Part shown: in pieces, positions 41,697 to 47,854 of the stretch
Position numbering within the stretch: the first letter of the stretch is position 1
Layout: every line of letters starts with the position of its first letter
Origin: Escherichia coli
GTDB lineage: Bacteria > Pseudomonadota > Gammaproteobacteria > Enterobacterales > Enterobacteriaceae
Assembly (NCBI RefSeq): GCF_001677475.2
Contig: NZ_CP015229.1
Reading direction: 5' to 3' (one strand)
Length of the DNA stretch: 64,000 nucleotides
Translations under genes and position numbers: made by a program
Notes under the pieces: generated by a model
Database searches by the model: none
What the model was told of the DNA's origin: nothing
The model's input: only the letters and a program-made list of their open reading frames with translations

Positions 41697-44348
41697 TTAG
41701 CCGGTATTACGCATACCTGCCGCAATCCCGGCAATAGTGACCATTAACGCCTGCTCGACGCGAGGATCCGGCTCATGGCCTTCTTTTTCTGCCTGGCGGG
41801 AGCGGTGCAGCAACTCGGCCTGCAATACGTTCAGCGGGTCGGTGTAAATATTCCGTAGCTGAATAGACTCTGCAATCCACGGCAGATCGGCCATCAGATG
41901 GGAATCGTTGGCAATCGCCAGCACCACTTTGATGTCTTCTTCTTGCAGATTGCGTAACTCTTTACCTAACGGCCACAGTGCTTTGTCTACCAGACGTTGA
42001 TCATAGTATTCCGCCAGCCACAGGTCTGCTTTGGCGAATACCATTTCCAGCATACCCAGACGCGTCGAGAAGAACGGCCAATCGCGGCACATAGCCTCCA
42101 GCTCGCTCTGTTTGCCGTCTTCGACCACTTTTTGCAGCGCCGTACCTGCACCCAGCCAGGCGGGGAGCATCAGGCGGTTTTGCGTCCAGGCGAAAATCCA
42201 CGGAATGGCGCGTAGTGACTCGACGCCGCCGGTTGGGCGACGTTTCGCCGGACGTGAACCCAACGGCAGTTTGCCCAGTTCTTGTTCCGGCGTAGCGGAG
42301 CGGAAGTAAGGCACAAAATCTTTGTTTTCACGTACGTAGCCACGGTAGAGATCGCAGGAGATGACTGACAGTTCATCCATAATGCGACGCCAGCTCTCTT
42401 TCGGCTCAGGTGGTGGCAGCAGGTTGGCTTCCAGAATCGCCCCGGTGTACAGCGACAGGCTGCTGACGGTGATTTCTGGCAGACCATATTTAAAGCGGAT
42501 CATCTCGCCCTGTTCAGTCACGCGCAGGCCACCTTTCAGGCTTCCTGGCGGTTGTGACAGCAGCGCCGCATGAGCAGGTGCGCCGCCACGACCAATGGAA
42601 CCGCCGCGACCGTGGAACAACGTCAGCTCAATACCCGCTTTTTCGCAGGTTTTGATTAATGCATCCTGTGCCTGATATTGCGCCCAGGAAGCTGCCATCA
42701 CGCCCGCATCTTTTGCTGAGTCGGAATAGCCAATCATCACCATCTGTTTGCCCTGAATCAGGCCGCGATACCAGTCGATATTGAGCAGCTGGGTCATGAC
42801 ATCGTTGGCGTTGTTCAGGTCATCGAGAGTTTCAAACAGCGGAGCAACCGGCATTGCAAACCCGATACCCGCTTCTTTCAGCAGCAGGTGGACAGCCAGC
42901 ACGTCGGACGGCGTTTTCGCCATCGAGATCACGTAGGCGGCAATGGAGCCTTGCGGCGCTTCGGCAATCACCTGGCAGGTATCGAGCACTTCGCGCGTTT
43001 CGGCGCTTGGTTGCCAGTTGCGCGGCAGAAGCGGACGTTTGGAGTTCAGTTCGCGGATCAGGAACGCCTGTTTGTCGGCCTCTGACCAGCTTTCGTAGTC
43101 GCCGATACCGAGGTAGCGGGTCAGCTCGCCCAGCGCTTCGGTATGGCGGGTGCTCTCCTGACGGATATCAATACGGACCAGCGGTACGCCGAAACATTTC
43201 ACGCGGCGCAGGGTGTCGAGCAGATCGCCGTTGGCGATAATACCCATGCCACACGCCTGAAGTGACTGGTAGCAAGCGTAGAGCGGTTCCCACAGTTCTT
43301 CGTTTTGTGTCAGCAGGCCTTCTGGTTTTGGCAGTTCTTCGCCTTTCAGGCGCGCTTCCAGCCATGCCTGTGTCGCCATCAGGCGAGAACGCAGGTTTTT
43401 CATCAGATAGCGATACGGTTCTGCGGCACCTTCTTCGCCAACCAGCGCCAGCAGTTCAGGGGTCGCTTCAACCATCGACAGTTCAGAAACCAGCACCTGA
43501 ATATCTTTCAGGAACAGATCGGTGGCTTTCCAGCGACTGAGCAGCAGGACGTGGCGGGTGATATCGGCAGTGACGTTCGGGTTGCCGTCGCGGTCACCGC
43601 CCATCCACGAGGTAAAACGGACCGGAACAAATTCGACGGGCAGTTTGTAGCCGAGATTCTCTTCCAGTTGTTCGTTCAGTTCGCGCAGGTAATTTGGTAC
43701 GCCTTGCCACAGGCTGTTTTCTACTACGGCAAAGCCCCATTTGGCTTCATCTACCGGGCTTGGACGCAGCTTACGGATTTCATCGGTATGCCATGACTGG
43801 GCGATCAACTGGCGCAGGCGGCGCATCAGCTGGTTGTGTTCGTAGTCAGCGATATCTTTGTTATCGAGCTGTTTTAAACAGGCGTTCACTTCCACCATTT
43901 TGTGGATCAGCGTACGACGGGTAATTTCGGTTGGGTGAGCCGTGAGGACCAGTTCCAGCGACAGCGATTCCACTGCTTTTTTGATGGTGTCTTCGCTCAG
44001 TTCCGGCTGGTTTTTCAGTTTACGCAGGGTGCGGGCGATCACTTCCGGGTTGCTGGCAGCTTCGCCTTTCGGCGAAATGCTGTGGTATTGCTCGGCGGTG
44101 TTGGCCAGGTTCAGGAACTGACTAAACGCACGCGCAACGGGCAGCAGCTCGTCGTTCGACAAATTTTGTAAGGTGGTGAGCAACTCCTGGCGGTTAGCAT
44201 CATTGCCAGCGCGTGAAGATTTGGACAACTTACGGATAGTTTCTACGCGTTCAAGAATGTGTTCTCCCAACGCATCCTTGATGGTTTCTCCCAGCACTTT
44301 GCCGAGCATACTGACATTACTACGCAATGCGGAATATTGTTCGTTCAT
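41697..44348 (-). CDS. ppc: Phosphoenolpyruvate carboxylase (883 aa)
   Basis: ORF 883 aa recognised as Ppc ([29 protein letters not shown]). Confidence 0.96.
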
Positions 44349-44676
44349 ATTACCCCAGACACCCCATCTTATCGTTTGATAGCCCTGTATCCTTCACGTC
44401 GCATTGGCGCGAATATGCTCGGGCTTTGCTTTTCGTCGTCTTTTATAAAGCCACGTAAAAGCGGTGACGTCAAATGCTGCGAAATCGCTTCAGCAAACGA
44501 ATAAATAGCAGGAATTTACGTCATTAAATTCACGACGCTTTAAATAAGCGTAACTTATGGGAATGTTAAAAAATCGCCTCAAGTAACACCAAAGAGTTAT
44601 GAGTTGTAGTTACCATTTGGGCAATCATCTGAGATTGCTGACAAACTCGTTTACGGGTCAGTATGGGCACGGTTTT

Positions 44677-44716
44677 CCCCTCACCCTAACCCTCTCCCCG
44701 AAGGGGCGAGGGGACT
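44677..44716. repeat. GC-rich imperfect palindromic element in ppc-argE intergenic region
   Basis: cccctcaccctaaccctctcccc-gaa-ggggcgaggggac; stem cctctcccc / ggggcgagg; resembles a dispersed E. coli intergenic repeat family, exact family not assigned. Confidence 0.45.
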
Positions 44717-44760
44717 GTCCGTGCGCTTGCATGGCTTTGTCATCAGCCTGATTTGCTTTT

Positions 44761-45912
44761 TTAATGCCAGCAAAAATGATGAATTACCTGGGTTATCAGT
44801 TCGCGGGTGGGCTTGATAAACCGTGTTTCCAGATATTCATCAGGCTGATGAGCCTGATTAATTGAGCCAGGGCCCAGAACCAGCGTCGGGCATAACGTTT
44901 GAATAAACGGCGCTTCGGTACAGTAATTCACCACTTCGGTCTTTGCTCCGAGCAATTTCTCAACTACTTCAACCAGTTGATGATTTGGCGGGCATTCATA
45001 GCCAGGGATCGGCGGATGCAGCTCGTCGACCGTCAGACGACCCGGCCAGCGTTCGCTCACCGGAGCCAGCGCATCGTTGAGTAGGCCATTAAGTTCATTG
45101 AGTGTCATGCCCGGCAGCGGACGAATATCCATATGCAACTCACAGCAAGCGCAGATACGGTTAGCCGCGTCGCCGCCGTGAATATGACCGAGGTTAAGCG
45201 TGGGGTAAGGCACGGTAAATGCCTCATAGTGATAGCGTTCTTTAAGATTGTCACGCAGTTGCAGGATATGACCGATGGCGTCGTGCATCAGTTCGATAGC
45301 GTTAACTCCGCGTGCTGGATCGCTGGAGTGGCCCGACTGGCCCTGAATACGGATGGCGTTAGAGATATGACCTTTATGTGCGCGTACCGGTTGTAGTGAC
45401 GTCGGTTCGCCAATGATGGCGCAATCCGGGCGCAGGGCGGTAGTTTCGGCAAAATAACGCGCTCCGGCCATACTGGTTTCTTCATCGGCAGTCGCCAGAA
45501 TGTAGAGCGGTTTTTTCAGTTTCGTGACGTCGACATCGCGTAGCGCATCAAGGATAAACGCAAAAAAGCCTTTCATGTCGGCGGTGCCTAAGCCGTAAAG
45601 CTTGCCGTCATGCTCCGTCAGTGTAAACGGATCGCGCGTCCAGCGTCCGTCATCAAATGGCACCGTATCGGTATGCCCCGCCAGCAACAAGCCGCCAGCC
45701 CCCTGTCCGGTACTTGCCAGCATATTAAATTTGTTGCGAGTTCCTGGCACAGGCTGCACTTCCACATTGAAGCCTAAATCTTTAAACCAGTCCGCCAGCA
45801 GAGTGATTAAATCTGCATTGCTTTGATCGAGTGCCTCTTCCGTGGCGCTTATTGAAGGTGTGGCAATCAGAGCACGGTAAATCTCGATAAATGGCGGTAA
45901 TTTGTTTTTCAT
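44761..45912 (-). CDS. argE: Acetylornithine deacetylase (383 aa)
   Basis: [23 protein letters not shown]...; M20 peptidase family; canonical start at codon 14 of ORF-track frame. Confidence 0.93.
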
Positions 45913-46065
45913 TGTTGACACACCTCTGGTCATGATAGTATCAATATTCATGCAGTATTTATGAATAAAAATACACTAACGTTGAGCGTAATAAAACCCA
46001 CCAGCCGTAAGGTGAATGTTTTACGTTTAACCTGGCAACCAGACATAAGAAGGTGAATAGCCCCG
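45913..46065. promoter_or_regulatory. argE / argCBH divergent promoter region with ARG boxes
   Basis: AT-rich block aatattcatgcagtatttatgaataaaaatacact containing TGAAT...ATTCA-type ArgR operator half-sites. Confidence 0.6.
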
Positions 46066-47070
46066 ATGTTGAATACGCTGATTGTGGGTGCCAGCGGCTA
46101 CGCTGGCGCAGAGCTAGTGACCTATGTAAATCGCCATCCGCATATGAACATAACCGCTTTGACTGTTTCAGCGCAAAGCAATGATGCGGGAAAGTTAATC
46201 TCCGATTTGCATCCGCAGCTAAAAGGCATCGTTGATCTGCCGTTGCAGCCGATGTCGGATATCAGCGAGTTTAGCCCAGGGGTGGACGTGGTGTTTCTCG
46301 CCACCGCCCATGACGTTAGCCACGATTTAGCGCCGCAATTTCTTGAAGCCGGCTGCGTGGTGTTCGACCTTTCCGGCGCGTTTCGTGTTAACGACGCCAC
46401 CTTCTATGAAAAATATTACGGCTTTACCCATCAGTATCCGGAACTGCTGGAACAGGCAGCCTACGGTCTGGCCGAGTGGTGCGGTAATAAATTAAAAGAA
46501 GCGAACTTGATTGCGGTGCCAGGCTGTTATCCGACGGCGGCACAGCTGGCGCTGAAACCGTTGATAGATGCCGATCTTCTTGACCTCAATCAGTGGCCGG
46601 TGATCAACGCCACCAGCGGCGTGAGCGGTGCAGGACGTAAGGCAGCGATTTCAAATAGTTTTTGTGAAGTTAGCCTGCAACCGTATGGCATCTTTACCCA
46701 TCGCCATCAACCAGAGATCGCCACACACCTCGGTGCTGACGTTATCTTCACCCCGCATCTGGGCAATTTCCCGCGCGGCATTCTCGAAACCATTACCTGC
46801 CGCCTGAAATCGGGTGTGACCCAGGCGCAAGTCGCGCAAGTGTTACAGCAGGCGTATGCCCATAAACCGCTGGTGCGGCTGTATGACAAAGGCGTTCCGG
46901 CGCTGAAAAATGTCGTTGGGCTGCCATTTTGCGATATCGGGTTTGCCGTTCAGGGCGAGCATCTGATTATTGTGGCGACCGAAGACAACTTACTGAAAGG
47001 CGCGGCGGCACAAGCGGTACAGTGCGCCAATATTCGTTTCGGCTATGCGGAAACGCAGTCTCTTATTTAA
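46066..47070 (+). CDS. argC: N-acetyl-gamma-glutamyl-phosphate reductase (334 aa)
   Basis: ORF 334 aa, [20 protein letters not shown]-binding N-terminus. Confidence 0.95.
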
Positions 47071-47077
47071 GGGTGCA

Positions 47078-47854
47078 ATGATGAATCCATTAATTATCAA
47101 ACTGGGCGGCGTACTGCTGGATAGTGAAGAGGCGCTGGAACGTCTGTTTAGCGCACTGGTGAATTATCGTGAGTCACATCAGCGTCCGCTGGTGATTGTG
47201 CACGGCGGCGGTTGCGTGGTGGATGAGCTGATGAAAGGGCTGAATCTGCCGGTGAAAAAGAAAAATGGCCTGCGGGTGACGCCTGCTGATCAGATAGACA
47301 TTATCACCGGAGCACTGGCGGGAACGGCAAATAAAACCCTGCTGGCATGGGCGAAGAAACATCAGATTGCGTCCGTAGGTTTGTTTCTCGGTGACGGCGA
47401 CAGCGTCAAAGTGATCCAGCTTGATGAAGAGTTAGGCCATGTTGGACTGGCGCAGCCAGGTTCGCCTAAGCTTATCAACTCCTTGCTGGAGAACGGCTAT
47501 CTGCCGGTGGTCAGCTCCATTGGCGTAACAGACGAAGGGCAACTGATGAACGTCAATGCTGACCAGGCAGCGACGGCGCTGGCGGCAACGCTGGGCGCGG
47601 ATCTGATTTTGCTCTCCGACGTCAGTGGCATTCTCGACGGCAAAGGGCAACGCATTGCCGAAATGACCGCCGCGAAAGCAGAACAACTGATTGAGCAGGG
47701 CATTATTACTGACGGCATGATAGTGAAAGTGAACGCGGCGCTGGATGCTGCGCGCACGTTGGGCCGTCCGGTAGATATCGCCTCCTGGCGTCATGCGGAA
47801 CAGCTTCCGGCACTGTTTAACGGTATGCCGATGGGTACGCGGATTTTAGCTTAA
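47078..47854 (+). CDS. argB: Acetylglutamate kinase (258 aa)
   Basis: [20 protein letters not shown]; canonical ATG 47078 eight nt after argC stop. Confidence 0.93.

Follow-up and report, generated by a model that had tools for sequence, protein, structure and literature searches.

BoxC elements, also called PIT elements, are reportedly treated in work by Bergler (1992), by Bachellier, and by Hoyne and Maher (2000 and 2002). Under the name TMECO, a consensus and a table of the K-12 copies were given by Holder et al. (2015, PMC4666352), who equate TMECO both with BoxC, a repeat described in the 1990s, and with Hoyne and Maher's PIT elements. BoxC is recorded as one of the known E. coli families, with a length of 56 bp and 32 copies (PMC2267715), and 23 TMECO copies are listed for K-12 MG1655 (PMC4666352). 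Copies of the ‘type A mm’ class have been shown by CD and NMR to form an intrastrand triplex as isolated single strands in vitro, and no triplex was detected in vivo by DMS footprinting (PMC4666352). The literature since the 1990s gives no function to the BoxC/TMECO family (PMC4666352), and in earlier reporter work its copies acted neither as promoters nor as terminators and had no effect in vivo (Hoyne and Maher, as reported in PMC4666352). Two further systems invite comparison, namely the REP/BIME (PU) sequences, which like BoxC are dispersed intergenic palindromic repeats, and the stable stem-loops without a U-tract just past which Rho-dependent transcripts end, protected from 3' exonucleases (Dar and Sorek 2018, PMC6061677).

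Our study concerns an element in the spacer between ppc and argE, where CCCCTCACCCTAACCCTCTCCCCGAAGGGGCGAGGGGACT was read directly at positions 44677-44716 of the window, that is, the whole 64-kb stretch of E. coli DNA that was analysed. The initial annotation had described this sequence as an imperfect GC-rich stem-loop past the argE stop codon that lacks a U-tract and resembles a dispersed intergenic repeat family other than REP, and its interpretation is supported by our results; the sequence itself stands as it was described. The term palindromic is borne out as far as the imperfect stem-loop is concerned, but it understates what proved to be a three-block C-G-G motif within a unit larger than 40 nt. 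Three features had thus been missed: the blocks number three and not two, the unit exceeds 40 nt, and the copy is absent from most strains. We consider it very likely that the element is one copy of the BoxC (PIT, TMECO) repeat in a lineage-specific allele, a level of confidence that covers its identity and origin and excludes the RNA role discussed below. The two genes that frame it are as follows.

41697-44348, minus strand: ppc, 883 aa (from the list of open reading frames)
44761-45912, minus strand: argE, 383 aa, with its stop codon at 44761-44763 (from the list of open reading frames and the translation)

The spacer is 412 bp long, and 44 nt separate the edge of the element from the argE stop codon. 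In strain 1190, the closest complete genome, PGAP annotates ppc and argE only and leaves the spacer without any feature; argE measures 1152 bp in that annotation and is the same gene as in the window. The exact ArgE protein and the 412-bp spacer are also present in GCA_002516285.1. Positions 43261-47412 of the window are identical to contig NJSK01000001.1 of that assembly across all 4,152 bp, and the best match to the spacer among complete RefSeq E. coli genomes is 98.8 %.

Membership of the BoxC family is indicated by the TMECO pattern CCCTCNCCC N3-6 GGGNGAGGG N3 GGGNGAGGG, which is matched exactly at 44678-44712 on the minus strand. This is the single match in the 64-kb window, the pattern occurs in none of 100 dinucleotide-preserving shuffles, and a 23-mer from the element gave the same result (one match in the window and none in 100 such shuffles), which places the sequence far from chance. 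The core and its blocks are arranged as follows.

44677-44713, minus strand: BoxC/TMECO core of 37 nt, CCCCTCGCCCC-TTC-GGGGAGAGGG-TTA-GGGTGAGGGG, ‘type A, one mismatch’
44703-44713, minus strand: pyrimidine block Y, CCCCTCGCCCC, which pairs with R1 or with R2
44690-44699, minus strand: purine block R1, GGGGAGAGGG, which forms Watson-Crick pairs with Y in the triplex model (PMC4666352)
44677-44686, minus strand: purine block R2, GGGTGAGGGG, the mirror of R1 and the third strand in the triplex model (PMC4666352)

Pairing of Y with R1 gives nine Watson-Crick pairs and one G x A mismatch, and pairing of Y with R2 gives nine Watson-Crick pairs and one G.T wobble. When the blocks are placed in the triplex register, nine of the ten triads are canonical for the purine motif (G*G-C and T*A-T) and the tenth is a G-A*A mismatch, the arrangement termed ‘type A mm’; Table 1 of PMC4666352 gives identical blocks for its ‘type A mm’ copies. 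Compared with K-12 copies 7, 11 and 15 of that table, the sole difference is found in loop 1, which reads TTC here and TTT there, the K-12 copies in general having TTT, TCT or TCC at this position. The copy next to argE shares with BoxC the three blocks and their one mismatched triad, a second loop of TTA (‘type A’), flanks of conserved sequence, a site between genes and tens of copies per genome. It differs in being absent from the 23 copies listed for K-12 MG1655 (PMC4666352), and in that its homology to some copies covers at least 95 bp, compared with the 56 bp or 36 nt usually quoted. No entry for ppc or argE was found in the accessible part of the supplement of Holder et al. (63 loci; PMC4666352). 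A search of the spacer against Rfam, with E-values up to 10 admitted, returned Antizyme_FSE as the sole match, with 18.6 bits, well below the gathering threshold of 40 (E = 0.36), and this was attributed to chance.

The extent of the unit was examined by fetching 10 MG1655 copies by their published coordinates, all of them intergenic, and aligning them with the copy in the window. Over the 11 copies the consensus of the flanks is cG.Gc.CGgACGGTC-[core]-AA.A.c. The degenerate K-12 copy between yjbD and rluF yields an ungapped alignment of 95 nt at 82 % identity to 44657-44751, so the repeat unit is at least 95 bp long; homology to the fimH-gntP, yihR-yihS and aaeR-tldD copies extends to 44749-44751, and homology to the adk-hemH copy extends to 44629. 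These alignments reveal that the 15-27 other genomic matches share more with the element than low-complexity runs of G and C. Outside the core, the following parts were distinguished.

44667-44724, minus strand: BoxC unit of about 58 bp, the core with its conserved flanks GCNCGGACRGTC and GAAAACC..GC (alignment of 10 MG1655 copies)
44667-44672: left arm of the outer stem, GCACGG on the plus strand, paired with 44719-44724 whichever strand is folded
44719-44724: right arm of the outer stem, CCGTGC on the plus strand, in the folds of both strands
44657-44751, minus strand: extended repeat homology of at least 95 bp (K-12 yjbD-rluF copy)
44733-44748, minus strand: small hairpin GGCU-GAUGACAA-AGCC in the 5' extension of the repeat (predicted fold)

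At the site of the small hairpin the fimH-gntP copy reads GACT...AGTC, so that both sides of one pair have changed, a comparison of three copies that hints weakly at conservation of this hairpin by paired change.

Folding with ViennaRNA gave a main hairpin formed by Y and R2, compared with the Y:R1 pairing of the triplex model, and most of the 10 K-12 copies are predicted to fold in the same way, usually with additional flanking pairs whose sequence differs outside the core. The stretch 44660-44735 (76 nt) reaches −37.4 kcal/mol as minus-strand RNA (z = −3.7) and −36.5 kcal/mol as plus-strand RNA (z = −3.5), and none of 200 shuffles was as stable in either case. The imperfect GC-rich stem-loop reported past the argE stop codon is thus recovered in the folds of both strands as a stable predicted structure. 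When folded as DNA, a 61-mer gave z of about −2.7 and the bare 40-mer z of about −1.2, with 23-27 of 200 shuffles equally stable; the bare 40-mer is unexceptional because shuffles of a composition so rich in G and C runs also fold well. The significance of the predicted fold stems from the unit that includes the outer stem (44667-44672 with 44719-44724) and not from the bare 40-mer.

Copy number was determined with an 86-nt query (44655-44740) against 5,426 complete E. coli genomes, in which 76,675 places were matched. The query was present in 5,408 genomes, with up to 27 places per genome (median 16), so the element is not single-copy and the earlier assignment to a dispersed intergenic family distinct from REP is confirmed as an exact fit to BoxC/PIT/TMECO. 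The element belongs to a non-coding dispersed repeat family of E. coli and its relatives that has already been described, and it is ordinary in that it is a known repeat occurring at about 16 places per E. coli genome. The significance of the finding is accordingly small: a stretch that was unannotated is identified as a known repeat, with the caution that it should not be taken for a terminator or a gene.

What distinguishes this copy is its location, and alignment with strain CEC01311 and with K-12 delimited the segment in which it is carried.

44595-44758: allele-specific segment of 164 bp that holds the BoxC unit (alignments with CEC01311 and K-12)

The segment starts 2 nt past the argE stop codon and its other junction lies 246 bp upstream of the ppc ATG. 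At the same junctions CEC01311 carries about 103 bp with one REP/BIME unit, giving a spacer of 351 bp, and K-12 MG1655 carries three REP/BIME units, giving a spacer of 597 bp. The 246 bp before the ppc ATG (44349-44594) align across the three alleles with two substitutions, both in MG1655; this part of the window is 100 % identical to CEC01311. The spacer of MG1655 holds REP/BIME only and no BoxC, which agrees with the lack of any copy near 4.15 Mb in the table of Holder et al. (PMC4666352). At least 80 % of the 412-bp spacer is covered in only 284 of the 5,426 genomes, and most of the genomes match just the 246 bp proximal to ppc. The BoxC copy adjacent to argE is lineage-specific, and the slot that it occupies holds REP/BIME in the two other strains aligned. 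The initial annotation had called the spacer unusually long, a description that does not hold for this locus, where 412 bp falls between the 351 bp of CEC01311 and the 597 bp of K-12; the length is not unusual because the part next to argE is a slot whose repeats differ between alleles.

A 79-nt query (44590-44668) that covers the non-repeat part of the segment was single-copy and was found in the same 284 genomes only, and the segment therefore consists of locus-specific sequence together with BoxC, rather than of one large dispersed element. All 284 carriers among the complete genomes differ from the window by at least 3 of 79 positions in this unique part. The BoxC segment is kept in all of them, and the 86-nt region is 100 % identical in 251 of the 284. 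Inspection of the segment boundaries revealed no convincing terminal inverted repeats or target-site duplications, and no genome with an empty site at the ppc-argE slot was found. REP elements have a known mobilising transposase (RAYT); to our knowledge, no mobilising transposase has been identified for BoxC. The REP consensus GCCGGATGCGGCG...CGCCTTATCCGGCCTAC and its Z variant are absent from 44595-44758, and no homology to the REP alleles was seen across that segment. The copy is most simply regarded as a passenger or selfish repeat, as its presence can be explained without any locus-specific function. The ppc-argE spacer nevertheless offers a clean natural exchange of alleles, BoxC against one or three BIME units at identical junctions, which could be used to test the effect of either repeat on the stability of argE mRNA or on the expression of ppc.

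A local role would most plausibly be played at the level of RNA. The argE mRNA would carry the C-G-G strand, and BoxC is the strongest structure of its predicted 3' UTR fold, the hairpin being retained when the whole 211-nt argE 3' UTR is folded. As a single strand, BoxC would adopt the hairpin or, as described in vitro in the literature, an intrastrand purine-motif triplex. The hairpin may form a barrier to 3'-to-5' exonucleases, and such a barrier could define or stabilize the 3' end of the mRNA after termination that would be independent of a U-tract and probably dependent on Rho, the same role that REP hairpins appear to play in K-12. With the protective stem-loops of Dar and Sorek the element has in common a stable stem-loop without U-tract shortly past a stop codon, and some K-12 BoxC copies share with them a 3' end 3-12 nt past the stem; however, those stem-loops are a functional class and not a sequence family, and the element resembles them in structure only (PMC6061677). 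We judge a role as exonuclease barrier and 3'-end determinant of argE mRNA to be a tentative proposal, with slightly less than an even chance of being correct, and the remainder of the probability lies mostly with this copy being inert here.

The proposed role was compared with mapped 3' ends of K-12 in the curated Term-seq table of Adams et al. (2021; PMC7815308, Supplementary file 1), the sequences of which span −50 to +10 around the 3' end, as checked on the chiX terminator. At a distance of 3-12 nt beyond BoxC copies, 3' ends are mapped at 164636 (plus strand), 624567 (minus) and 632098 (plus), at 3781065 (plus), which is the primary 3' end of lldD, and at 4231270 (minus), downstream of yjbD. 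A further 3' end at 3959467 (minus), downstream of ppiC, falls between R1 and R2 of a copy oriented as at argE. These ends suggest a testable RNA-level role for the family (PMC7815308). However, five of the seven coincidences between Term-seq ends and BoxC involve the opposite orientation, in which the RNA is C-rich, and this counts against the role at argE. For type-A copies in the orientation seen at argE, GGGAGAGGGTTAG had no match among the curated 3' ends (PMC7815308), and no 3' ends were found just past the adk, tauD and zntA copies in the K-12 Term-seq coordinates. The adk mRNA reads through a BoxC copy of the same orientation and has its 3' end about 60 nt further on, past a hairpin followed by a T-run. 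The overlap with Term-seq may mean no more than that exonucleases are stopped by stable hairpins of any kind.

The slot after argE itself provides a second line of comparison. On the minus strand of K-12 a 3' end at 4153343 corresponds to the base of the last REP and to the junction of conserved and variable sequence (at about 44594 in the window); a mapped 3' end, probably the end of the argE mRNA, is thus found at the repeat slot. REP/BIME and BoxC are alike in occupying the same slot after argE in different strains, and in K-12 an RNA 3' end has been mapped where the last REP of the slot has its base. A second K-12 3' end was noted at 4153127, 29 nt upstream of the ppc ATG. The single BIME of the CEC01311-type slot is predicted to form a hairpin of −54.6 kcal/mol, compared with −37 for BoxC. 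A wider proposal would be that BoxC elements serve as orientation-dependent mRNA 3'-end modules that are exchangeable with REP/BIME, two unrelated families having been recruited in different E. coli lineages for one job at one position, 2 nt past the argE stop codon. This we find doubtful, although not so much so as to withhold it; were it true, BoxC would gain a cellular role that was found neither by the 2015 study nor by the earlier reporter work.

An explanation at the level of DNA, by which a triplex or hairpin formed transiently during replication would render the locus prone to recombination or deletion and so account for the diversity of ppc-argE alleles, was also considered and is thought improbable. 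More rearrangement has been reported around TMECO loci than around control sites among strains (PMC4666352), the spacer has at least three alleles (351, 412 and 597 bp) and nine of the ten triads in the argE-adjacent copy are canonical. However, the variation in length sits among the REP/BIME alleles, with one or three units and without BoxC, whereas the BoxC allele has kept its segment in 284 of 284 genomes, with an identical 86-nt region in 251, and in vivo footprinting revealed no triplex (PMC4666352). Such instability is compatible with our preferred explanation, a BoxC copy in a lineage-specific allele with a tentative role at the end of the argE mRNA, and does not exclude it.

The same hairpin, strong and 44 nt past the argE stop codon, could be taken for an intrinsic (Rho-independent) terminator at which RNA polymerase is released, the more so as primary 3' ends of mRNAs, such as that of lldD, are found at some of the K-12 BoxC copies. 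Intrinsic terminators do have a GC-rich hairpin downstream of a gene in common with BoxC, but BoxC lacks a U-tract and any reported terminator activity. The minus strand reads GGGGAAAACCGUGCCCAUAC, the sequence after the stem is GAAAACCGUGCCCAUAC, and a scan of the argE (minus) strand detected no terminator-like site, in line with the absence of a U-tract noted in the initial annotation; an intrinsic terminator is rejected on these grounds. In addition, the family was inactive as a terminator in the earlier reporter tests (PMC4666352) and adk transcripts pass a copy of the same orientation. We therefore regard intrinsic termination at this site as very unlikely. The scan of the spacer for promoter and terminator consensus sequences did return one weak terminator-like site on the plus strand, at a rate equal to chance expectation.

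A cis-regulatory site for ppc, in the form of a distal operator or a topological barrier upstream of the ppc promoter, is suggested by the position of the element in the ppc-argE spacer, about 330 bp before the start codon of ppc. This role is highly improbable because about 95 % of E. coli genomes lack the segment while the adjoining 246 bp are conserved across the alleles compared, and copies of the family show no link to gene function or distance (PMC4666352). The initial annotation also assigned the ppc promoter to the spacer; a crude scan of the ppc strand of the spacer revealed no match to the sigma-70 consensus.

A small protein-coding gene is extremely unlikely, even though an ATG-initiated open reading frame of 50 aa (44599-44751, plus strand) spans the element. 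This reading frame is rejected because it is disrupted in strain 1190, where, owing to a 1-bp indel, it lacks its ATG and first 10 codons and is reduced to a 40-aa frame starting with TTG; PGAP annotates nothing there, and the central peptide, GFPLTLTLSPKGRGD, is merely the translation of the BoxC repeat. Open reading frames across BoxC repeats could be miscalled as hypothetical proteins.

Finally, the possibility that the element is a GC-rich palindrome that arose by chance or is unique to this locus, or that it belongs to REP/BIME, has a practically negligible probability, for although the bare 40-mer folds no better than shuffles of its own composition, the element is multi-copy with conserved flanks, its pattern occurs in none of 100 shuffles, and the REP alleles at the same site, GCCGGATGCGGCG...CCGGCCTAC, are unrelated to it in sequence.

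Some minor observations were made on sequences beyond the unit. The 13-mer TCAGCAATCTCAG (minus strand, 44629-44643) lies 3' of BoxC here and also between adk and hemH in K-12, in which spacer it stands immediately before a terminator-like hairpin bearing a mapped 3' end, and a similar sequence, TTAGCAATCTC, precedes another 3' end at K-12 489902. At argE, TCAGCAATCTCAG forms a 6-bp hairpin (GCAATC/GATTGC) without a U-tract. This 13-mer may be due to chance or may be a decayed part of the repeat.

Holder et al. found no TMECO on plasmids, phages or transposons (PMC4666352); 41 of the 76,675 BoxC-like places in our search are on plasmids. The TMECO pattern was also sought in 100,044 species genomes, and among the matches listed at least about 150 exact copies lie outside Enterobacteria, mostly in Mitsuaria chitosanitabida NBRC 102408, where they frequently form inverted pairs 80-300 bp apart with flanks of their own. 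Also among the matches listed were at least three copies in a Ca. Contendobacter MAG and at least 13 in a groundwater MAG of the Methylomirabilota (NC10), for which contamination of the MAG is possible.
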